Positions 608 through 13,729 of a stretch of DNA of 20,000 bases are shown piece by piece. The DNA is taken from IMG/VR virus record IMGVR_UViG_3300032093_000026; one strand, written 5' to 3'. Under the pieces are notes generated by a model. It had not been told where the DNA came from and did not search any database. It worked only from the letters and a program-made list of their open reading frames with translations. Source of the stretch: an uncultured virus (IMG/VR IMGVR_UViG_3300032093_000026) (Duplodnaviria; Heunggongvirae; Uroviricota; Caudoviricetes). How positions within the stretch are numbered: position 1 is the stretch's first letter; each line of letters starts with the position of its first letter. Both the position numbers and the translations under genes were made by a program.

Positions 608-725
608 CTGTAGGGGTAGGATTCGAACCTACACGTTGACTATTCTCAACAAAAAGCTTATTTCTGTGGAGAATACTCAACACTATCGAGACAAGATAGC
701 GTGTCTGCCATTTCACCACCCTACA
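608..725 (-). tRNA. Atypical tRNA, anticodon GUC (Asp), with 50-nt variable arm
   Basis: Acceptor TGTAGGG/CCCTACA plus G73; D arm GTG-AAATGGCAGA-CAC; anticodon arm CTATC-TTGTCTC-GATAG; T arm GTAGG-TTCGAAT-CCTAC; no encoded CCA. Confidence 0.8.
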
Positions 726-751
726 ATATTGCAACTTTTGTAACAAAAGTC

Positions 752-869
752 AGTGAGAGTTGCCAACTCATCCAGCTTACGATCTGGCTCTCCTGGGTCA
801 GCTGTGCAAGACATGAAGTCTATTCTGAGAGCTGTGAGAGGAACTACGATCTAGTGGCCTACTAGCACT
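752..869 (-). ncRNA. Candidate multi-stem structured RNA between the two tRNAs
   Basis: AGTG/CACT closure with CTAGT/ACTAG, TTCCT/AGGAG-CAGCT/AGCTG-AGAC/GTCT, CCAG/CTGG and GAGTT/AACTC stems; GC-rich relative to flanks. Strand assumed from the operon. Confidence 0.5.
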
Positions 870-872
870 TTG

Positions 873-944
873 TTGCGAGGGTGGGAATCGAACCCACGAC
901 CTTGAGCTTATGAAACTCACGAGCTACCTCTGCTCTACCTCGCG
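873..944 (-). tRNA. tRNA-Met(CAU), initiator-like
   Basis: CGCGAGG/CCTCGCA (C1:A72 mismatch), D stem GAGC/GCTC (A11:U24), TGAGT-TTCATAA-GCTCA, GTGGG-TTCGATT-CCCAC, A73. Confidence 0.93.
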
Positions 945-949
945 AAATA

Positions 950-1462
950 TTATTGATCATACGCAAGATTTTGACCACCTCTCACTGTCGATTGTTGTTC
1001 CTCTTCCAAATCTCGAAGTGTGCCTTTAAAGCTCTGGCGTATTTGTTCAAATTTTGATGCTGCGTTAACAAGTGCTGTAATGTTACCGTCTCTGCCATGC
1101 TCAATTTCTGTAGTCTCCATGTATTTAGCAAGCCTATCCAACATGCTCTTGATACCAGCATAAGCTCTGTACGTTGGTGTTTCGTATAACTTTTTACACA
1201 TTTTAAGACCATTAACAATACAATCTTCATCAGTAGAAAAGTCAACGTCAATTTCTTTAAGAATAAGTTCTTCTTTTTCATGTTCTGGTACATCAAAAAA
1301 AGGGTTTACATCTGGACTAGGACAAGTCATGTAAAACAAATAAGCATATATTTTTAAATACTCATCTGGAAACTCATCCATTATGTCCTTTAAAAATTTA
1401 AGTGTATAACAATGTTCTGTTACTACCACCTTTCCATTTTGTATATCAAATAATCTGATCAT
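950..1462 (-). CDS. Conserved crAss-like protein, putative terminase small subunit
   Basis: 170 aa, helical, C-terminal RGGQNLAYDQ, upstream of terL. TerS function is inferred from position. Confidence 0.55.
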   Translation of the reverse strand: MIRLFDIQNGKVVVTEHCYTLKFLKDIMDEFPDEYLKIYAYLFYMTCPSPDVNPFFDVPEHEKEELILKEIDVDFSTDEDCIVNGLKMCKKLYETPTYRAYAGIKSMLDRLAKYMETTEIEHGRDGNITALVNAASKFEQIRQSFKGTLRDLEEEQQSTVRGGQNLAYDQ

Positions 1463-5434: not shown

Positions 5435-5664
5435 ATATGTTTGGTTTTACGTTTTGACTCGTGATAATTACTGTAGTTAATATGCTTGCTTTTGTTAGAA
5501 GATCTCTCTAATTCCATAGCAGCCATTCTATAAGCTAGCCCGTCTCTTACATCTATTACAGGAACCCCCACCTCTTGATCAAACCTATCTTTAACTACTC
5601 TGTAATGAGACAAAAGATCTTCTCCTGCGTCATCTTTTAAATACCTTAATTCCATTTGATTCAT
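5431..5664 (-). CDS. Hypothetical protein, first gene of the leftward operon
   Basis: 77 aa ORF directly after a promoter-like motif. Confidence 0.7.
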   Translation of the reverse strand: MNQMELRYLKDDAGEDLLSHYRVVKDRFDQEVGVPVIDVRDGLAYRMAAMELERSSNKSKHINYSNYHESKRKTKHI

Positions 5665-5667
5665 AAT

Positions 5668-5699
5668 ATAATATACTTTAAATGTTTAAACTTTCCAAA
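5668..5699 (-). promoter_or_regulatory. Bacteroidota-type promoter variant for the leftward operon
   Basis: TTTG (5699-5696) - 20 nt - TATATTAT (5675-5668); the consensus is TTTG-N19-21-TAnnTTTG. Confidence 0.5.
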
Positions 5700-5868
5700 T
5701 TTATTTAGAATACCTCAATTAAATTTTTTGATTTTTACACATGTTGTGTATAACCCCCCACTACTATATTAGAGTGTGTTGTGGGGTATTGATGGTTTGA
5801 CCCCTACTTCGTTTGGGGGATATGGTGTACCCCGATGTTACACCACTTAATTCTTAAATCGTAATGTT

Positions 5869-6165
5869 ATGACAGCGAAAGTTTTTGGTGCAAAGATTGT
5901 TTCCATCCTTGAAGAAGTAAAGACTAAATCCAATGGTAAGCAGTACTTGACAGCAACAGTTGAGTTTACTGATGGCCCACTCGTGGGCAAGACTTACTTT
6001 GCTCAACGCACTTTGGGAGAGAACAAGTCTGCTATTGCAGTCGGTCAAAATGTGCGTGCTATTCTTGAAATCGTTGAGAGAGACGGTGTGAAAAGACCGT
6101 TCTTCGAGATTTCTACTAGCATCGTGGATGATGCAGACAGCTTGATGGCGTTGCTTGGTCAGTAA
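5869..6165 (+). CDS. Beta-rich protein, possible OB-fold nucleic-acid-binding
   Basis: 98 aa, KSNGKQYLTATVEF, VGQNVRA; first rightward gene, followed by a terminator. Confidence 0.65.
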   Translation: MTAKVFGAKIVSILEEVKTKSNGKQYLTATVEFTDGPLVGKTYFAQRTLGENKSAIAVGQNVRAILEIVERDGVKRPFFEISTSIVDDADSLMALLGQ

Positions 6166-6185
6166 TGTGACCATAGCATCGTAAC

Positions 6186-6218
6186 AACACACACGCATAC
6201 TGCGTGTGTGTTTTTTTT
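6186..6218 (+). terminator. Rho-independent terminator
   Basis: AACACACACGCA-TAC-TGCGTGTGTGTT plus U tract. Confidence 0.85.
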
Positions 6219-6301
6219 ATTTGTGCGTACAGTTTCTCAGATCATATTTTTTTTAATTGTTTATACTGTTTCTCTGTTCATATATTAATCCTTAGTGAAT
6301 T

Positions 6302-6394
6302 ATGTTAGCAACTATTCTTGCTGACGGAACTGTTACTATTGTTAAGACTGTTAAAGACTTAATAGTATTGGCAGAAGAGACACGCAATGCGTGA
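6302..6394 (+). CDS. Small ORF (30 aa, MLATILADGTVTIVKTVKDLIVLAEETRNA)
   Basis: Manual translation; AT-rich leader. Confidence 0.45.
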   Translation: MLATILADGTVTIVKTVKDLIVLAEETRNA

Positions 6395-6459
6395 TCTCTA
6401 ACGCAGTTATGCTTCATCTGCGTTGCGTCATACGACCAAAAAGCAATTTGATATTATTT

Positions 6460-6502
6460 GTGTGTGTTTGTTTTATTGACAGACACACACTTTACTTTTT
6501 TT
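6460..6502 (+). terminator. Terminator-like hairpin
   Basis: GTGTGTGTTTG/CAGACACACAC followed by TTTACTTTTTTT. Confidence 0.6.
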
Positions 6503-6534
6503 AACCTGCGTATAATGCTCACATTTATTTATTT

Positions 6535-6828
6535 GTGTGGGCATTAGATCGCTATAAATCTTATGTTATGGTTCTAATTAAACCTGGTACTAAGTGTTTA
6601 GAATCTGCTAGTGAATACAAGTATTACTTAGCAGTTAGTTGTGATCAACTGTGGGTTATGGGTAGAGAGAATGGAGAGTATGTGTTGCTTGAACAGATTG
6701 TAATAGGTGTTAGTTATGACGCTTATTTAGTTGCTTGCACTGATGAGGATGCGTTTCTTGATTCTATTACTATTATCAAGGACTATATTCTTAGTGGTCG
6801 TAATGCACTGAACTTGTTAGACATTTAA
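6535..6828 (+). CDS. Hypothetical protein (true start possibly ATG 6568)
   Basis: ORF track. Confidence 0.6.
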   Translation: MWALDRYKSYVMVLIKPGTKCLESASEYKYYLAVSCDQLWVMGRENGEYVLLEQIVIGVSYDAYLVACTDEDAFLDSITIIKDYILSGRNALNLLDI

Positions 6829-6840
6829 ATAATACAAACC

Positions 6841-6908
6841 CAAGTGGTACAGGGGGTAACTCTCTGCAGAGAGAAATAGTAGTGCTCGCGACACTATGGC
6901 CACACTTG
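6841..6908 (+). ncRNA. Candidate three-way-junction RNA
   Basis: CAAGTG/CACTTG closing CAGGGGG-TAA-CTCTCTG and TAGTG/CACTA. Confidence 0.4.
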
Positions 6909-6930
6909 ACTAATAAGTAAAAATTCGTAG

Positions 6931-6960
6931 AAAGGCGTGTGATTAGTCCACACGCTTTTT
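6931..6960 (+). terminator. Rho-independent terminator
   Basis: AAGGCGTGTG/CACACGCTTT plus T run. Confidence 0.75.
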
Positions 6961-6988
6961 AATTTTGTAACCAATTAAACTTGTATAT

Positions 6989-7186
6989 ATGAAACAGAAC
7001 TTCTTGTTAATTTATGCTATTGTATTGTTTGTTATATCATCTGCAGTGCTGTATTTAGGTGCTGATTCAGGGTTATTAGTTGATACTATTAACCTATGTA
7101 TTATAGGTGGTATGACTCTTTTAGGTTATGTTGGTTCATTTTTAGCCTATTTAGGTTATCGTGAACAATTAAAAGAATCTCAATAA
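6989..7186 (+). CDS. Small membrane protein (2 TM)
   Basis: 65 aa, two hydrophobic segments. Confidence 0.7.
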   Translation: MKQNFLLIYAIVLFVISSAVLYLGADSGLLVDTINLCIIGGMTLLGYVGSFLAYLGYREQLKESQ

Positions 7187-7200
7187 GAGAGTAACTCTTT

Positions 7201-7311
7201 GCACAGTTGTAGTTGGTTATATCCTTCTAGAGGGGTATAATCTGTAAACCTACTGTCACTTAGATGACAGCTTGTAAAACATCGCCAAAGGTGTGGGGCT
7301 ACAACTTGTGC
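7201..7311 (+). ncRNA. Candidate four-way-junction RNA
   Basis: GCAC-AGTTGTAGT/GCTACAACT-GTGC closure; GGTTATATCCTT/AGGGGTATAATC; CTGTCA/TGACAG; CATC/GGTG. Confidence 0.55.
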
Positions 7312-7349
7312 TTTGAGATTAATTAGTAACCAATTAAATCATATATATT

Positions 7350-7541
7350 ATGAAAATGTCTATTAAAGAGTTAAATGAAATACTCTATTGTGTTGGTAAA
7401 GTTAATATGATTGAACCTAACAGCCCGTTCAAAGATGTTAGAGATGGTGTTGTTAATAAGATTACCGACAAGCTTAATGCTTATGTAATGGATGAAATGC
7501 GTAAACAGGGTTTACTTCCTGTGTCTGAAGAATGTTTTTAG
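7350..7541 (+). CDS. Hypothetical protein
   Basis: 63 aa, followed by a strong hairpin. Confidence 0.65.
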   Translation: MKMSIKELNEILYCVGKVNMIEPNSPFKDVRDGVVNKITDKLNAYVMDEMRKQGLLPVSEECF

Positions 7542-7555
7542 TTTATTAAAATATT

Positions 7556-7586
7556 GAACTAGGTGTAGCAATACATCTAGTTCTTT
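7556..7586 (+). terminator. Terminator-like hairpin
   Basis: GAACTAGGTGTA-GCAA-TACATCTAGTTC-TTT. Confidence 0.65.
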
Positions 7587-7663
7587 ATTCCTATGTTGTA
7601 AGGAATTAAAACCAAGATGCTGAACTTGGGAATAAGTGTTTACACTTATTTATATACAAAACA

Positions 7664-8198
7664 CAGCTGTTATTAGTAGTGCTTCATTGCGCGAGGAGTA
7701 ACACAATGATGTGGGAACCACAAAGCCTTTAGCGAGGTCTAAAAGTTCCAGTGTTATAGATAAAGAGATGAGCCGCTAAGCTCATTGTAGTTGTCTATAA
7801 AGATAGGTCTTTAGGGAATAACCTATCAAAGCGAAAAATCCTACAATTAATAAAAATAATTGTCTGCAAAAGAGGGCGCAATCCCTTAATCCCATTCATA
7901 CAGGTTAGTAGTGCCAAACATCTTGGGGTAAAACTCAAAGTGTCTCGCAAGAGGATATGTTGAAGCTGTTGCAGCAGTGGATATATATCATCCTGAAGTT
8001 TAGAGACTTGCTATCTCGTAGACAGATGGATAGAATAATCGTATGAAGACCCAAAAGGTCAAACAGTGTTAGTTCTGATGATGACTAACAGGCATAAGCA
8101 TTGAACAGTTTAACAAGCTGGTTGACAGATTACATTACTAACTATAATGTAAGTCAATGCACAATAGCAATAGATCTTGTCATTACGCTATTACTTTT
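7664..8198 (+). ncRNA. Candidate large ornate non-coding RNA
   Basis: Lies in a ~730 nt gap with no ORF in the track; more than a dozen stems, long-range closure 7664-7684/8096-8120, kissing loops TTAGCG/CGCTAA, 3' hairpin plus U tract. Confidence 0.7.
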
Positions 8199-8273
8199 TA
8201 ATTCCAATAGGTGTATACACTTATTGTCTATTATATATATTTCCTTATTGCTTAACTATTAAAAATTTTTAAA

Positions 8274-8690
8274 ATGAAAAGATTTTATTTGGCTTTAACA
8301 ATTGTAGTTGTAATATCTGCTGTAATAGCATTGATATTTATGACATTTAACTCTGACATTGACACAACTTGTGCTGTTAGAGATCGTTCTGATGTTTATT
8401 TAGATGACGAAGAATATCTGATCTATCCATCTGATAGTACAGATAAATGGAATATTGTTTTTCCATCTGATGATTTATATGTAGATCTTAAACCTGAACA
8501 AATTGCATTGTTCTTAAAATCAGGCGAAATACCAAAAGACACAACTTGGGTTATTTATCCTCAATGTGAATATCAACTCACTATGGAAGATAATTATATT
8601 CTTATAGAAGATTTTGGTAGACCTATTGGTAAGATTCCATATAATAAAGCAGGCGATATTGGTAAACTATTATTAAAAGACAACGAATAA
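8274..8690 (+). CDS. Membrane-anchored/secreted protein
   Basis: 138 aa, N-terminal hydrophobic helix, acidic soluble domain. Confidence 0.75.
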   Translation: MKRFYLALTIVVVISAVIALIFMTFNSDIDTTCAVRDRSDVYLDDEEYLIYPSDSTDKWNIVFPSDDLYVDLKPEQIALFLKSGEIPKDTTWVIYPQCEYQLTMEDNYILIEDFGRPIGKIPYNKAGDIGKLLLKDNE

Positions 8691-8700
8691 AAACAATTTT

Positions 8701-8883
8701 ATGAGTAAAACAATTTTATTAGCTAGTTCAATTATACTAGCTATTTTAACGACAGTTATGATTTTCTTGTGCTTTTGTTTCTTAAACGCTAACAAAACTA
8801 GTTTAATTGTTATATGTACAATTAGTTTAGCAGGTTATTTAACAAGCGCACTTTATTTTCTTTCTTATAAAGAACAAAAATAA
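8701..8883 (+). CDS. Small membrane protein (2 TM)
   Basis: 60 aa, hydrophobic. Confidence 0.65.
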   Translation: MSKTILLASSIILAILTTVMIFLCFCFLNANKTSLIVICTISLAGYLTSALYFLSYKEQK

Positions 8884-8889
8884 AAAGTT

Positions 8890-9057
8890 ATGAAATACCT
8901 TATTTTTCTTCCAATTTACTGGGTTTATATGTTATTGCTATTCATAATCGTAGGAATCATTTGCTTATGGGCATTTGATTTTAAGAAATTTGGACTTAGA
9001 ACAAGAAATCTTAACCATGTTATTGGTTTTGGCTATTGGATAGGCGATAGATTATAA
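8890..9057 (+). CDS. Small membrane protein (55 aa, MKYLIFLPIYWVYMLLLFIIVG...)
   Basis: Manual translation; fills the gap between neighbours. Confidence 0.6.
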   Translation: MKYLIFLPIYWVYMLLLFIIVGIICLWAFDFKKFGLRTRNLNHVIGFGYWIGDRL

Positions 9058-9078
9058 AACTTAAAAATTTATTTGCAT

Positions 9079-9282
9079 ATGAAAATTAGTAAAAAACTAA
9101 AGGTGGCGCTGACATTAGCAGCGCTGCCTTTTTTGTTAGTCTGGGCTGGCTTTATTTTAACTGGTTTTGCTTTTAAACCACATGATATATTTCAATCAGG
9201 AGCATTTTGGGGTGGTTCAGTGATATATTGGACACTCTATATATGTATGATTGGTGTAATTATTGAAGAAATAAAACAATAA
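9079..9282 (+). CDS. Small membrane protein (2 TM)
   Basis: Track ORF trimmed to ATG 9079. Confidence 0.7.
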   Translation: MKISKKLKVALTLAALPFLLVWAGFILTGFAFKPHDIFQSGAFWGGSVIYWTLYICMIGVIIEEIKQ

Positions 9283-9287
9283 AGTAT

Positions 9288-9608
9288 ATGACTATACAAA
9301 ACAAATTCTATCAAACCGTCTTAGATGATCTAGGACGGTTTGTAGGTTATAGGACAACCTTCAATGTTCCTAAACAATTTGTATTAGATACCTATGATTA
9401 TTATATGAACATAGGTCGTAATTACTTTGTGGAGATTAAAACTCCTAAAATGAAATCTGCTAGACATATGTATTGCAAAATGTATAAAGATTTCCACATT
9501 ATGTTGGAAGATGTTAAATATCTGCAAATAGATGTTAACAGATGGAAAGAAAAGCAATTACAAGAAAAACGTAAATTTTTAATTAATTCTTTAAGTGAAA
9601 AATTATGA
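9288..9608 (+). CDS. Hypothetical protein
   Basis: 106 aa ORF. Confidence 0.7.
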   Translation: MTIQNKFYQTVLDDLGRFVGYRTTFNVPKQFVLDTYDYYMNIGRNYFVEIKTPKMKSARHMYCKMYKDFHIMLEDVKYLQIDVNRWKEKQLQEKRKFLINSLSEKL

Positions 9609-9730
9609 AAAAAATAGTATTATCTTTAATGGTTATTATCTTTTTAAGTTCTTGTATGAGATATAAAGTAGAGTCATCATCGCCTAGTGGCTGTGGTGTT
9701 TGGTATCCTGCAGGAAAGTTTAACAAGTAA
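9605..9730 (+). CDS. Small lipoprotein (41 aa)
   Basis: MKKIVLSLMVIIFLSSC-MRYKVESSSPSGCGVWYPAGKFNK; lipobox LSSC; ATGA overlap. Confidence 0.7.
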   Translation: MKKIVLSLMVIIFLSSCMRYKVESSSPSGCGVWYPAGKFNK

Positions 9731-9794
9731 GTACGAAGGTTGGGTGTCACCTGAGAGCTCGTAAGAGAGAAAACACCAAATTCTTTTTAAACGG

Positions 9795-9864
9795 AGCTCA
9801 TTTCTGCACCCTAAACATAGCATATATATGTATTAATACTATGTTTAGGGGGCATTTTTGAGCT
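9795..9864. repeat. Long inverted repeat
   Basis: CCCTAAACATAG (9809-9820)/CTATGTTTAGGG (9839-9850) perfect 12 bp, extended by TGC/GCA and AGCTCA/TGAGCT. Confidence 0.85.
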
Positions 9865-9879
9865 ATAAAATCATTTTTT

Positions 9880-10164
9880 ATGAGTAATGCAAATCAGTCT
9901 TTGGCACTAATGCTTGCCACAATCACACCGCGTGAAGTTCTTATTGAACAACTTGAAGAATCTATTTCTGAGTTTAAAGAAGCAAAACTTCTTAATAAAT
10001 CAGAAGAAGAAATGGATGACTTGTTTAGATCTCTTGCTGTAAGAGCACATCTTATTACTATTAATGTAATGACCAAAGGTAGTTTGGAAGGTGTGCAACA
10101 TATTATGCAAAGAATGGATGAACTTGAAAGACAAGACAATTTTTTCAAAAAAAGTACTAATTAG
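9880..10164 (+). CDS. Hypothetical helical protein
   Basis: 94 aa ORF. Confidence 0.75.
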   Translation: MSNANQSLALMLATITPREVLIEQLEESISEFKEAKLLNKSEEEMDDLFRSLAVRAHLITINVMTKGSLEGVQHIMQRMDELERQDNFFKKSTN

Positions 10165-10166
10165 TT

Positions 10167-10316
10167 ATGAAAAAGCTTTTATTGTTTCTTTTAGTTATTG
10201 TTTCTTTTTCTTCTTGCTTACGTGTAAGTTATCCCAGAAATAGTAGTAAGGGCTACGGCTGCAAAGGCAAAGAAAGCTGGAAACATATGGAAAAACGTAT
10301 TAATAAACCTTATTAA
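10167..10316 (+). CDS. Small lipoprotein (49 aa)
   Basis: MKKLLLFLLVIVSFSSC-LRVSYPRNSSKGYGCKGKESWKHMEKRINKPY; lipobox FSSC. Confidence 0.7.
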   Translation: MKKLLLFLLVIVSFSSCLRVSYPRNSSKGYGCKGKESWKHMEKRINKPY

Positions 10317-10326
10317 TTTATTTATT

Positions 10327-10518
10327 ATGATTAATTTATCAAAAAATGATAATCCAAACTATTTTGATTTATCTAAAGATGATAATCAGTTAGAACCACC
10401 ACCAGCTCAAGTTAATCTTGAGAATGGTAAGTCAATGTGGGTTATAGATGGTTATCGTATTTGGGCTAAGTCTTATAAAGAAGCACTTGAATTGCTTCCA
10501 CTTATTGAATCATTTTAA
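10327..10518 (+). CDS. Hypothetical phage protein (IDGYRIWA motif)
   Basis: 63 aa ORF. Confidence 0.7.
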   Translation: MINLSKNDNPNYFDLSKDDNQLEPPPAQVNLENGKSMWVIDGYRIWAKSYKEALELLPLIESF

Positions 10519-10519
10519 A

Positions 10520-10720
10520 ATGTTTTCTTATATGAAAAATAAGATAAGAACAATTCTTTTTGGAGAAAGAATAAAGGGGGAGAAACTTCCCCCTTTAAAA
10601 CCATTAAAAGAAAGACCAATGAATGAAAAAGATTTCTTTAAATGGTGTAATGAACTAAATGTTAGTTCACAGTATGGTAGACAAAATGTTCATATAGATA
10701 ATCTTAAAATCAATGGTTAA
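10520..10720 (+). CDS. Hypothetical protein
   Basis: Track ORF 10448..10720 trimmed to ATG 10520, directly after the upstream stop. Confidence 0.65.
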   Translation: MFSYMKNKIRTILFGERIKGEKLPPLKPLKERPMNEKDFFKWCNELNVSSQYGRQNVHIDNLKING

Positions 10721-11276
10721 AACTACTTATGAATCATCATTTCACAAAAAAGTAGTTCAAAACATTGTTTTTAAAGATTTTAAAATGCGTAAGTTTAAAA
10801 AACTTATTGGTTTAGCAGGTCCAAATATATCTAGTTATTTACTTTTTATAAAGAAAATGGGAATTAAACAAGCACATATATATGAAAATAATAATGAGCA
10901 AATTATTAATCAAGTGCTTGATTTTAAACCTATTATACCTACAACTGTAATATTTGAAGATATATTAAATGCGCCAGTTAAAGATGATACAATATATGAT
11001 TTAGATTTTTGTTGTAGCATTTTAAACGCTAGAGAGCAAATTAAAAAGTTTAAAAACAATGCGATAATTACTTTATCAATTAGACCTTTTGGTTTGAAAA
11101 AAACAATTAATGAATTTTGTAAGCTTATTAGTAAAAATAAAACGGTAATTAATTATAATACCAAGATAACTAATAGTTACAAAATGCATTTAATTATTCT
11201 TAGTAACAAAAAAATCTACGAGTGTTATCAGTATCGTGATAGCACATCAATGTTAACAATTAAACCTCAATTTTAA
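10713..11276 (+). CDS. Divergent class I SAM-methyltransferase-like protein
   Basis: LIGLAGP (motif I-like), HIYENN, FEDIL and YDLDFC in Rossmann order. Confidence 0.5.
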   Translation: MVKTTYESSFHKKVVQNIVFKDFKMRKFKKLIGLAGPNISSYLLFIKKMGIKQAHIYENNNEQIINQVLDFKPIIPTTVIFEDILNAPVKDDTIYDLDFCCSILNAREQIKKFKNNAIITLSIRPFGLKKTINEFCKLISKNKTVINYNTKITNSYKMHLIILSNKKIYECYQYRDSTSMLTIKPQF

Positions 11277-11285
11277 ATTAAAAAA

Positions 11286-11582
11286 ATGGCAACTAAATTA
11301 AAATTTTATACAAGTAGAGAAATTGCACACTTAAAAAGTATTGCAAACTACCCAACTAAGCAACAAAAGATTGCAGCATTAAAACAATTTTCAGAAAAAT
11401 TTGAAAGATCTTATAATGCTGTTTATATTAAATATCTCACTTTAACAAAACGTATAAATAACAAAACTGACAAAAGGTTAGTTAATAGATTATCTGTTAA
11501 AAAGGGTCAATTTAAAATACCTATTGAAAGTTGGAATATTAATAATGAAGATGGTAAATTATATTTTACTGTTAACTTCTAA
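11286..11582 (+). CDS. Myb/SANT-like HTH DNA-binding protein
   Basis: FYTSREIAHLK...FSEKFERSYNAVYIKY. Confidence 0.55.
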   Translation: MATKLKFYTSREIAHLKSIANYPTKQQKIAALKQFSEKFERSYNAVYIKYLTLTKRINNKTDKRLVNRLSVKKGQFKIPIESWNINNEDGKLYFTVNF

Positions 11583-11590
11583 AGAAGCTG

Positions 11591-11796
11591 AGCTAGCTAT
11601 TGCTAGATGGGTACATCCTTACCCTAAGCCATTGCAACTTAGGACTGATCAACCATGGGTGTGTGCTACGACAGGATTCTAGCTAATCAGGGATGAACAC
11701 CCTGTAATGGTGGATATTCAATCACTCCCAAGCCTGGGCTGCATTTATGCGTATACTACCATATGTAGAGATTTAATCTGCTACAATTGACTAGTT
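11591..11796 (+). ncRNA. Candidate ~205 nt multi-stem RNA
   Basis: AGCTAG/CTAGTT closure; GCTAGA/TCTAGC, ATCCT/AGGAT, CCTAAG/CTTAGG, ACC/GGT, CAGGG/CCCTG, CCCA/TGGG, GTAGA/TCTGC; terminator follows. Confidence 0.55.
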
Positions 11797-11808
11797 ACTG
11801 GGTATCAC

Positions 11809-11836
11809 AAGAGGTGGGTTAAGCCTCTTATTTTTT
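11809..11836 (+). terminator. Rho-independent terminator
   Basis: AAGAGG/CCTCTT plus ATTTTTT. Confidence 0.6.
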
Positions 11837-11847
11837 AACTTTGTTGT

Positions 11848-12123
11848 ATGAGTAGAATTGAAAAAGGTTTTGGGATGGTAACATATGATGTTATGCGAGA
11901 TCCTGAAATAAGCTTAAGAGAAAAAGCAATATATTCTTATTTATGTACATATGCTAATAGTAAAACTAATGAGCTATATGTAGGAATAAATAGAATTGCT
12001 GCAGAATGTGGAGTGGATCATTCTACAATTAAGAGAATCATCAAATCTCTAAAAGATAAAGGAATTATATCAAGAACATTAAGAGGTAATCTTAACAGTT
12101 CTATAACAGTTATATTAAAATAA
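11848..12123 (+). CDS. Helix-turn-helix protein (HTH_36, phage replication-initiator N-terminal-like)
   Basis: ISLREKAIYSYLCTYAN...GINRIAAECGVDHSTIKRIIKSLKDKGII. Confidence 0.82.
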   Translation: MSRIEKGFGMVTYDVMRDPEISLREKAIYSYLCTYANSKTNELYVGINRIAAECGVDHSTIKRIIKSLKDKGIISRTLRGNLNSSITVILK

Positions 12124-12128
12124 TTGTT

Positions 12129-12203
12129 AGAAGGCCCCAATATAATATCCAGATAATGTTTTGTAACGATTATTTGAGCTATTATAAGTGGATCAGGCCT
12201 TCT
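12129..12203 (+). other. Long imperfect hairpin
   Basis: AGAAGGCC/GGCCTTCT, TATAAT/ATTATA, CAGATAAT/ATTATTTG, GTT/AAC. Confidence 0.6.
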
Positions 12204-12210
12204 TAGTTAT

Positions 12211-12376
12211 TGTCTGATGTTGAGAGCCTATAGTGTATTGACGTGACGCCACGGATGTACTATGACCAGTTAGTAGTGTCCTTGACATGATCATAATAGG
12301 CCTGGGAAAACACGAAGACTCAGTAGTAATGTGATCCTCCGCAGATAACAAAGAACTATAGTCCTCAGCATAGACA
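12211..12376 (+). ncRNA. Candidate rod-shaped RNA with central bubble (6S-like architecture)
   Basis: TGTCT/AGACA, ATGTTGAG/CTCAGCAT, CTATAGT/ACTATAG, 17/13-nt bubble, CGGA/TCCG, TACTA/TAGTA, TGA/TCA, CCAG/CTGG, TGTC/GACA. Confidence 0.55.
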
Positions 12377-12377
12377 T

Positions 12378-12408
12378 TTTGTTTTTTATTAAAAGTTGCC
12401 TATATTTG
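12378..12408 (+). promoter_or_regulatory. Consensus Bacteroidota sigma-A promoter
   Basis: TTTG (12378-12381) - 19 nt - TATATTTG (12401-12408). Confidence 0.8.
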
Positions 12409-12427
12409 ATACATAAAACCAATTTTT

Positions 12428-12577
12428 ATGTACAAGTATGTAACTCAAAACATTTGTAAGGAAGGTAGTTCCTACAGAGTTCGTTATCAAAGAAATGGTA
12501 AACGCTATTCTAAATTTTTCTCTAAGCGTAAAGAAGCAATTGCTTATAGAAATAAAATGTTAGGAATGAGTTCTTAA
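12428..12577 (+). CDS. Small AP2/integrase-arm-like DNA-binding protein (49 aa)
   Basis: MYKYVTQNICKEGSSYRVRYQRNGKRYSKFFSKRKEAIAYRNKMLGMSS; three strands plus helix pattern; has its own promoter. Confidence 0.7.
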   Translation: MYKYVTQNICKEGSSYRVRYQRNGKRYSKFFSKRKEAIAYRNKMLGMSS

Positions 12578-12677
12578 ATTATTATTAGTACTAATATTTA
12601 ATCACAATTCAAAACAATTAAAAAAAGTTTTGGTTAGTAAGTTATGATTAATGAAGGGGTTAGTACTAATTTTGGTT

Positions 12678-12769
12678 AGTCAAGTGGCGGAATGTAGACG
12701 CTGAACAGAAGTGCATCATCTCAGTTATGAGTAAGGCGCAACATGCAGGTTCAAATCCTGTCTTGACAC
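12678..12769 (+). tRNA. tRNA-like element lacking a canonical anticodon arm
   Basis: GTCAAG/CTTGAC acceptor, GCG-GAATGTAGA-CGC D arm, GCAGG-TTCAAAT-CCTGT T arm; the middle is an irregular hairpin. Confidence 0.6.
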
Positions 12770-12776
12770 AAAACAT

Positions 12777-12866
12777 TTGGATCATCGCCATCGTAAAGCA
12801 TCACTGGAAGAGCTCCTATGGAGAAGTGAGATAGTCGAGTAAAACAGGAAACTGAAATTGATCCAA
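12777..12866 (+). ncRNA. Candidate 90-nt structured RNA
   Basis: TTGGATCA/TGATCCAA closure; TCACT/AGTGA, CTCC/GGAG, CAG-GAAA-CTG. Confidence 0.5.
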
Positions 12867-12884
12867 TACGTTTTTTGAAATTAT

Positions 12885-13306
12885 GGGCCTGCCTGGTATT
12901 GACAGCAAAGAACAGGTAGTATCACATGCAAGGCCTGGCAGAGGTCAAACAATCTGTCAAACAATAAAAGACAACTCTAACGTTGAGCTTTCTAATTACA
13001 CTGTTGAGTCTCTGTTTGCAGAGCTTGAGTGTTCTGAGCTTGAATTAGCTTAATTAGACGGGTAGCTATACCTTGGAACAGAAAATAGTATATAGTCCCA
13101 AATTTCCTGGATTATTAGGACTTTAATAATATTAGAATCTAGGTGGTGGAGCTGTTCTAACCGCTGGTTAGTTCCTCATACGGTGCAAAAGTAAAGCTCA
13201 TCCTTTACTTTAGTACAATAGTTGTCAAGCTATCTCTTGACTAAGCATGTAAGAATGGTATTACAGGTGATTTGTTTGGACAGGGGTTCGACTCCCCTCA
13301 GGTCCA
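12885..13306 (+). ncRNA. ssrA: tmRNA
   Basis: GGGCCTG/CAGGTCC-A acceptor with G3:U70; GGTATTGAC D-loop; CATGC/GCATG helix; GGAC-AGGGG-TTCGACT-CCCCT; tag ORF 12970-13053. Confidence 0.93.
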
Positions 13307-13334
13307 CTTAATTTTCATATAGCAAGCAAGGTAT

Positions 13335-13367
13335 GTCCTGATGTTTCTACATTGGGGCTTTTATTTT
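13335..13367 (+). terminator. Rho-independent terminator after ssrA
   Basis: GTCCTGATGT/ACATTGGGGC plus TTTTATTTT. Confidence 0.7.
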
Positions 13368-13378
13368 AATTTTATTTT

Positions 13379-13729
13379 ATGAAAAATAAAAAATATCTAG
13401 AAGAAGATAAGCCTGTAAGTAAACCAGGTAAAAAAAAATCCAAAGAATGGATTGTAGAATATAAGTGGAAGTCATTAGAAGAATATAATAAATACCCTAA
13501 GAAATGGTATAGATCTGATGTATATTCAGAAGAGTGGAGATCTATTGCATATAGTAATAAATTCCATACATCTAAGTCTGCTATACAATCAATAGATCAA
13601 TTTATAAAAGTTGCAAAAGCTTATCATAAAAATGATCTTATGACGGGATGGTATGATGACAAATTTGGTAAAGATTATAGAGTGAGAAATCTCAAGACAG
13701 GAGAAACAATTAATTATTTAAATGATTAA
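13379..13729 (+). CDS. Hypothetical basic protein
   Basis: 116 aa ORF. Confidence 0.75.
   Translation: MKNKKYLEEDKPVSKPGKKKSKEWIVEYKWKSLEEYNKYPKKWYRSDVYSEEWRSIAYSNKFHTSKSAIQSIDQFIKVAKAYHKNDLMTGWYDDKFGKDYRVRNLKTGETINYLND

Follow-up and report, generated by a model that had tools for sequence, protein, structure and literature searches.

Large structured RNAs of undefined function are rare. The pRNA of phi29, an RNA of ~120-170 nt from small phi29-like genomes, has a pair of mutually complementary loops through which separate molecules link hand in hand into a ring. Two further phage-associated classes, ROOL and GOLLD, are described in PMC12286853 as building RNA-only cages: ROOL is a homo-oligomeric cage built by kissing loops, and kissing loops also form the cage of GOLLD, whose abundance rises during lysis.

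The window analysed here, a stretch of 20,000 nt from the genome of an uncultured tailed phage, contains at 7553-8198 on the plus strand what we take, with a probability of roughly 0.8, to be the gene for a stable structured non-coding RNA of ~645 nt, an accessory element of a ~128-kb freshwater phage. The stretch is without coding capacity, its helices have undergone compensatory change in a second phage, and it is present in the RNA libraries of seven studies with agreeing contig ends. Like ROOL it is phage-encoded and large, close to the ~600 nt of that class, and composed of many helices, and its conserved pair of complementary loops could act in the same way; it differs in matching no Rfam model and in having no supported long-range helices or pseudoknots. 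ROOL is often encoded near tRNA islands. Neither the tRNA-Met (872-944) nor the tmRNA (12885-13309) of the window adjoins it, the nearest tRNA being 6.6 kb away. With GOLLD it shares a phage origin and an aquatic setting, GOLLD having first been seen in lake and marine data and this RNA occurring in many lake RNA libraries, whereas GOLLD is frequently longer than 800 nt, carries a conserved 3' region and is often found close to tRNAs, and its model finds no match here. By analogy, phi29 pRNA would be the simplest precedent for pairing in trans, since two mutually complementary loops are present here too, although in an RNA of ~645 nt, in a ~128-kb genome and without an Rfam match.

Comparison rests on a single metagenome scan that returned two identical copies (L090 and L091), one of them on a contig of 127,938 bp, and one diverged copy, L092, on a contig of 21.6 kb. 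The diverged copy is 85% identical to 7588-8199 at the nucleotide level, while the proteins beside it are only 26-63% identical to those of the window and the sequence upstream is unrelated, which makes the RNA the best-conserved segment of the locus.

The original prediction had placed a large RNA in a gap of ~730 nt devoid of open reading frames, and this gap is real: 7542-8273 is free of reading frames and its longest open run is 71 codons. TAA, TAG and TGA are each present in all six frames, so that no single stop reassignment would open the stretch, and coding under another genetic code was rejected for this reason. The 90 substitutions between window and L092 are spread over the codon positions 35/23/32, without codon periodicity, and the indels between the two RNAs disrupt frames. 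Conserved small ORFs, named from the outset as what would count against an RNA, were sought in the same comparison, and none was found that accounts for the stretch. One candidate, an ORF of 8 codons behind a GAGGAG word (7693-7732), is kept in L092 with amino-acid changes and was set aside; it is further disfavoured by the use of such a word in 0 of 40 phage ORFs. The ORF-free stretch folds better than shuffled sequence, with z -4.8 on the plus and -4.6 on the minus strand, and its G+C content, 0.38-0.39 against 0.27-0.32 in the flanks, is raised much as it is over the tmRNA gene of the same window. The gap very probably contains a genuine gene for a structured non-coding RNA.

From the consensus energy, which is better by 43 kcal/mol on the plus strand (-159.8 versus -116.9 kcal/mol), from the 3' U tract and from the direction of the neighbouring genes we infer that the plus strand is the RNA. 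The start at 7664 proposed earlier was wrong, as conservation with L092 spans 7586-8198 and RNA contigs begin from 7553-7570; as best delimited, the start lies ~110 nt further 5', which adds the 5' terminal hairpin and three conserved hairpins (7587-7651). The parts of the gene, with the changes that their helices show in L092, are as follows.

7553..8198, plus strand: whole RNA gene in its best delimitation, ~645 nt, from RNA contigs and L092 conservation
7556..7583, plus strand: 5' terminal hairpin of 12 bp (-21.1 kcal/mol, z -5.2)
7587-7606, 7612-7629 and 7630-7651, plus strand: three tandem 5' hairpins, consensus helices 1, 3 and 4 (3 both-sided and 2 one-sided changes, 0 broken)
7662..7713, plus strand: local three-helix domain
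7714..7749, plus strand: arm A, with the GGAAC/GTTCC helix, an internal loop, a short stem and the 6-nt loop TTAGCG at 7729-7734 (helices 8 and 9)
7754..7800, plus strand: arm B, with a 10-bp helix, a 7-bp stem and the 6-nt loop CGCTAA at 7774-7779 (helix 11, 3 both-sided compensatory changes)
7802-7827, 7843-7863 and 7872-7887, plus strand: three more hairpins with A-rich linkers between them, helices 12-14 (1 both-sided and 2 one-sided changes, 0 broken)
7895..8047, plus strand: central multi-branch domain of 153 nt closed by 7895-7907/8036-8047, helices 15-21 (6 both-sided and 7 one-sided changes, 0 broken)
8048-8060 and 8067-8090, plus strand: two hairpins, the second with loop CTGATGAT, helices 22 and 23 (2 one-sided changes; the L092-type version also occurs in RNA run X9)
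8098..8160, plus strand: 3' three-way domain with outer helix 8098-8104/8154-8160, a small hairpin and the variable hairpin 8130-8152
8163..8198, plus strand: terminal hairpin 8163-8168/8187-8192 and U tract 8194-8198, helix 27 (1 both-sided and 1 one-sided change; U tract retained in L092), likely the intrinsic terminator and 3' end of the RNA
8206..8225, no strand assigned: palindromic hairpin beyond the 3' end of the RNA, sharing 90% identity with 7631-7650

The RNAalifold consensus of the window and L092 has 169 base pairs, of which 135 are unchanged, 17 carry one-sided and 17 both-sided changes, and none is broken; these are counts from a single diverged homologue, on a fold optimised with the same two sequences, and not a formal covariation statistic. 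As a control, the 3' partners were slid by 1-3 columns, after which 38-44% of cells were paired and both-sided changes numbered 0-2. When the window was folded by itself, L092 being withheld, the result showed 13 both-sided and 16 one-sided changes along with 23 breaks, most of the latter in long-range helices and in one hairpin that is replaced in L092. The most conserved part is the central domain, with a mean column identity of 92%, and the covariance model of the core, R1, recognises the two copies, at 185 and 186 bits, and these only.

Most of the stems read from the single sequence reappear in the two-sequence consensus. Present there are GGAAC/GTTCC around GCCT[TTAGCG]AGGT; TTATAGATAA/TTGTCTATAA around ATGAGC[CGCTAA]GCTCAT, with 3 both-sided changes; GATAGGT/ACCTATC, ACAATTA/TAATTGT, AGGG/CCCT and GACC/GGTC; TGTTAGTT/GACTAACA; the final hairpin with its U tract; and TTCATAC/GTATGAA, which extends to 7895-7907 with 8036-8047 and also has 3 both-sided changes. 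The pairing TTACATTA/TAATGTAA (8130-8137 with 8145-8152) survives as a position rather than as a sequence, a different hairpin occupying the same place in L092 (6 bp with a GAAA loop, against 8 bp with a 7-nt loop in the window), and the two copies, folded separately, give the same three-way shape for the 3' domain. The same holds for the 5' terminal hairpin, whose position is kept in L092 by an unrelated 15-bp hairpin directly 5' of the conserved block. Replacement of a hairpin at a fixed place is typical for variable stems of RNA families.

The overall architecture first drawn for the molecule has to be given up. A helix of 7664-7684 with 8096-8120 was to close the RNA; since 5 of its 15 pairs break in L092 it was dropped. 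A local alternative (7662-7665/7710-7713, 7668-7674/7697-7703 and 7679-7682/7689-7692) keeps 15 of 15 pairs, two of them through both-sided changes, UA to CG at 7671/7700 and GC to AU at 7679/7692. The proposed stem TCATTG/CAATGA is invariant and crosses this supported local helix. The description of the gap as almost wholly paired was too strong, with 338 of 615 columns paired (~55%). The globally closed architecture was wrong, and with no long-range helix closing the molecule the RNA is less "ornate" than ROOL or GOLLD. The core of the original prediction, a large structured non-coding RNA of an uncatalogued class, is supported. Such an RNA would open with a strong 5' hairpin, continue through some twelve local hairpins with A-rich linkers between them, the 153-nt core and the 3' three-way domain, and end in a hairpin and U tract.

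The loops of arms A and B were predicted to kiss. Their complementarity at 7729-7734 and 7774-7779 is exact (6/6) and identical in L092; among the unpaired segments, TTAGCG/CGCTAA is in fact the sole 6/6 Watson-Crick match that both RNAs retain, and the CGCTAA loop is unpaired with an ensemble probability of 0.99-1.0. Both loops are unchanged in L092 though the stem under CGCTAA has its 3 both-sided changes. Unpaired columns show ~14% substitution, so that 12 unchanged bases are not rare, and of 5000 shuffles 9.7% produced a 6-nt match among the 18 hairpin loops. With invariant loops and a chance of ~0.1 for the match, a kissing contact between the two arms is plausible. The loops might pair in cis, in trans or not at all, and there is an appreciable prospect that the complementarity is fortuitous. 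Pairing between molecules that would drive self-assembly, in analogy to the rings of phi29 pRNA or the cages of ROOL and GOLLD, is speculative and on balance doubtful; pairing within one molecule is about as likely as pairing between molecules.

Evidence for transcription comes from assembled RNA libraries. Eleven runs from seven freshwater studies contain 76-89% of the words sampled from 7560-8260, even though several of the libraries amount to only 32-38 million letters. Four runs, one per study (X9, X11, X12 and X18), were compared with 6500-9500, and their contigs match with 0 differences at 7553-8196 (X9), 7567-8189 (X12), 7570-8170 (X18) and 7243-8188 (X11). Three of the four thus start within 7553-7570, that of X9 beginning 3 nt 5' of the terminal hairpin 7556-7583, and the ends in all four studies fall within 8170-8196. 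All compared runs are assembled contigs that carry no strand, true ends or level and allow for DNA carry-over, and the agreement of contig ends across studies, where DNA contigs run on, is a weak hint only. In X11 the phage lies on four perfect pieces, and the RNA piece has a depth, as a rough figure, of 537 against 9.3, 2.7 and 3.5 for the flanks; the flanks bare of contigs in X9, X12 and X18 carry no evidential weight. X9 also contains a 176-nt contig of the L092 type, which places the sister RNA in an RNA library too. The long X9 contig continues after 8196 with 17 loose letters equal to 8107-8123, perhaps an assembly artefact or a template switch. Metatranscriptome coverage had been suggested as a check; in the assembled libraries the stretch is present, with contig ends at 8170-8196 and with one contig, that of X11, running on to 7243.

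This last contig could point to another origin for the transcript. Unbroken from 7243 to 8188, it crosses the 63-aa ORF upstream, so that a longer transcript may exist of which the RNA is the 3' portion; no convincing promoter was found between the upstream stop codon and 7553, and in both phages a 5' hairpin directly follows the stop codon, where the hairpin 7556-7583 could also be a terminator for the upstream ORF. The RNA might accordingly derive from the mRNA of the 63-aa ORF (7350-7541), as its long, structured 3' untranslated end or as a product of its processing, and have no promoter of its own. We consider this unlikely. L092 has an unrelated ORF of 99 aa at the upstream position and an RNA that is nonetheless 85% identical, and three of the four RNA contigs start at 7553-7570; the question moreover bears on the origin of the RNA and not on its being a functional RNA. 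For the gene as preferred here, transcription may begin at a promoter of its own just upstream of 7553, or a longer transcript, starting at 7243 or before, may be processed to release the RNA.

The genes downstream suggest a different role, that of a cis-acting leader or attenuator in which the terminator at 8163-8198 controls read-through into the small membrane-protein genes from 8274. The RNA runs in the same direction as these genes, its hairpin and U tract come shortly ahead of them, and L092 has the RNA and the genes in the same order. A length of ~645 nt is, however, far above that of known leaders, the nucleotide identity of 85% contrasts with 26-46% for the proteins of the genes that would be controlled, and relatives keep homologues of some of the downstream genes without the RNA; together these make a leader improbable. 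We infer instead that the RNA would act in trans, early in infection, as a folded RNA that serves some factor of host or phage as scaffold or decoy.

Searches beyond the metagenome scan returned no homologue from 50,697 phage records (blastn), from IMG/VR with exact or degenerate patterns, where two matches were rejected as chance, or from prokaryote genomes. Nor did blastn and nhmmer on 81 and then 92 loci find any besides L092; 34 related records, 4 of them at 96-100% completeness, gave only matches of at most 41 nt, and no relatives were found with the flanking proteins as search handles. Run on 45 sources, the covariance model R1 returned the two known copies only; a 15-bit match in L051 was rejected, lying inside a 96-aa ORF. 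Matches on both flanks show 13 related loci to extend across the slot, and the RNA is absent from all 13. The lack of homologues outside L092 across these phage, IMG/VR, prokaryote and related-locus searches makes it an accessory gene of two lineages, and its absence from related loci and records indicates that it is not essential to this phage family.

Known families were addressed with Rfam 15 (4227 families), at curated gathering thresholds over the whole window and at E up to 10 on 7450-8350. The models named for this purpose at the outset (ROOL, GOLLD, OLE, HEARO, RNase P and introns) gave no match, which supports novelty; within 7450-8350 there was likewise no Rfam match to OLE, HEARO, RNase P RNA, group I or II introns, tmRNA, 6S or self-cleaving ribozymes, in line with the earlier remark that signatures of RNase P and introns are lacking. 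At E up to 10 with permissive filters these 901 bases yielded matches at chance level only, four in all (E 0.65-9.6, 14-17 bits): two microRNA models, flpD and one plastid leader. No ribozyme was found within 5600-13400 at E up to 1. A literature search brought up no description of this RNA. Of the two options first offered, a divergent member of ROOL or GOLLD or a new class, membership is rejected by the failed model tests, and the RNA is, as judged from sequence, a new class within the large structured phage RNAs. That it might be a ROOL or GOLLD RNA so diverged that the Rfam models fail to recognise it is very improbable. It does share with them a phage origin, a size within 600-800 nt, many hairpins, a candidate loop contact and a tRNA and tmRNA in the window (ROOL and GOLLD traits as given in PMC12286853); the permissive search over 901 bases nonetheless gave no match to either, the nearest tRNA is the one 6.6 kb off, and long-range helices and supported pseudoknots are absent.

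The palindrome beyond the 3' end raises the idea of a small non-autonomous mobile element with repeats at 7631-7661 and 8195-8225 and incidental folding. The 31-nt arms are 77% complementary and 533 nt apart, the palindromes 7631-7650 and 8206-8225 are 90% alike, and the element, located in a variable region, has a patchy distribution in the relatives. Against this, homology with L092 begins at 7586 and so extends 45 nt beyond the left repeat, L092 does not conserve the right repeat, the left palindrome is a helix with pair-keeping changes, and neither target duplications nor other copies were found; with the homology running past the left repeat this reading was dropped as scarcely credible. 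The palindrome at 8206-8225 itself, with 4 matches where 0.03 are expected, has similar words in three related phage records. Equally hard to credit is an origin-of-replication transcript or primer RNA, for although the RNA is a structured transcript 3.6 kb upstream of the initiator-like gene 11848-12123 and 2 kb from the point of divergent transcription, relatives keep that gene (43-58% identity) without the RNA and no iterons or AT-rich unwinding element were found beside it.

The genes mark the window as phage DNA: besides many orphan ORFs it encodes a RecB/Cas4-like exonuclease, an HNH endonuclease and a replication-initiator-like protein. IMG/VR contains 330 relatives of the exonuclease, on contigs that reach 121-128 kb; among named phages the nearest are crAss-like, with an identity of only 26%. 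Genes left of ~5700 are conserved among the relatives, and the region ~5700-10300, which contains the RNA, is highly variable. The attribution to a Bacteroidota-type phage is no more than hinted at: a Shine-Dalgarno-like word precedes 0 of 40 ORFs, as would suit a Bacteroidota host, but the TAnnTTTG promoter word, with 24 occurrences for 34.6 expected, shows no enrichment. The only full TTTG...TAnnTTTG pattern of the window is at 12378-12408. It falls within a second ORF-poor stretch (12124-12884, plus strand, fold z -4.5) that precedes the tmRNA and holds a tRNA-like match at 12678-12769 (24.5 bits, below the cut-off of 29). The tmRNA itself (plus strand) scores 79.3 bits with Rfam, and the tag given by ARAGORN is unusually long and lacks the usual ending; in sister phage L010 a tmRNA and a tRNA are found in the matching region (638-1104, minus strand).

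Other sequence features around the RNA are recorded here in their own right. A repeated word (..GTAACCAATTAAA) at 6962-6979 and 7321-7338 stands 10-12 nt 5' of the start codons at 6989 and 7350 and may be a phage promoter or translation signal; a related word at 7539-7550 ends 3 nt 5' of the first base of the longest RNA-only contig. Tandem 36-nt repeats and a repeated GT-run/T-run word (6204-6282 and 6460-6477) are located in the divergent-promoter region that separates the leftward and rightward gene blocks. A basic orphan protein of 106 aa (9288-9608, plus strand) has its only detected relative next to the RNA in L092 (1279-1677, minus strand, 26% identity) and none in IMG/VR; on this thin evidence it is a candidate partner of the RNA.

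The RNA appears to be a further class, unrelated to the cage-building ROOL and GOLLD, and although it is known from two lineages only it has a clear natural signal in the RNA libraries of seven freshwater studies and a testable feature in the conserved loop pair. A bolder reading, which we hold to be rather unlikely, would see a self-assembling class whose loops pair hand in hand into rings or cages, encoded at a slot that serves as an exchangeable RNA-cargo site. Were it true, nuclease-resistant assemblies would account for the RNA in very small lake RNA libraries, and the sister phages would be filling the same slot with other large RNAs and hatchet ribozymes. The phage family, with more than 300 IMG/VR relatives and a variable early region that holds a tmRNA, hatchet ribozymes and at least one other large structured RNA, is in any case a good system for asking what large RNAs do in infection.

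Hatchet ribozymes are present in the same variable early region of two sister phages, at 6128-6266 of L064 and 6707-6848 of L025 (both minus strand; 76.6 and 66.3 bits), and none was found in the window itself; L012 has at ~6342-7150 a stretch 75% identical to the hatchet of L064. The other large RNA is a ~530-nt candidate of unrelated sequence in L010 (~5478-6010, minus strand) and L020 (2593-3170, minus strand), whose copies are 76% identical and show 21 both-sided compensatory pairs and 1 broken, with a consensus energy of -136 against -85 kcal/mol on the other strand. It occupies the same variable slot and strand as the RNA described here and is also without an Rfam match at curated thresholds; it differs in being rich in GUAA loops and in having no sequence or model similarity to this RNA. 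The variable slot may be a place where non-coding elements accumulate. One or two ORF-free gaps occur in almost every sister phage and fall into several sequence families, none related to this RNA, and such gaps, of 580-770 nt, were seen in the variable regions of L025, L043, L052, L056, L064, L070, L072, L076 and L078.
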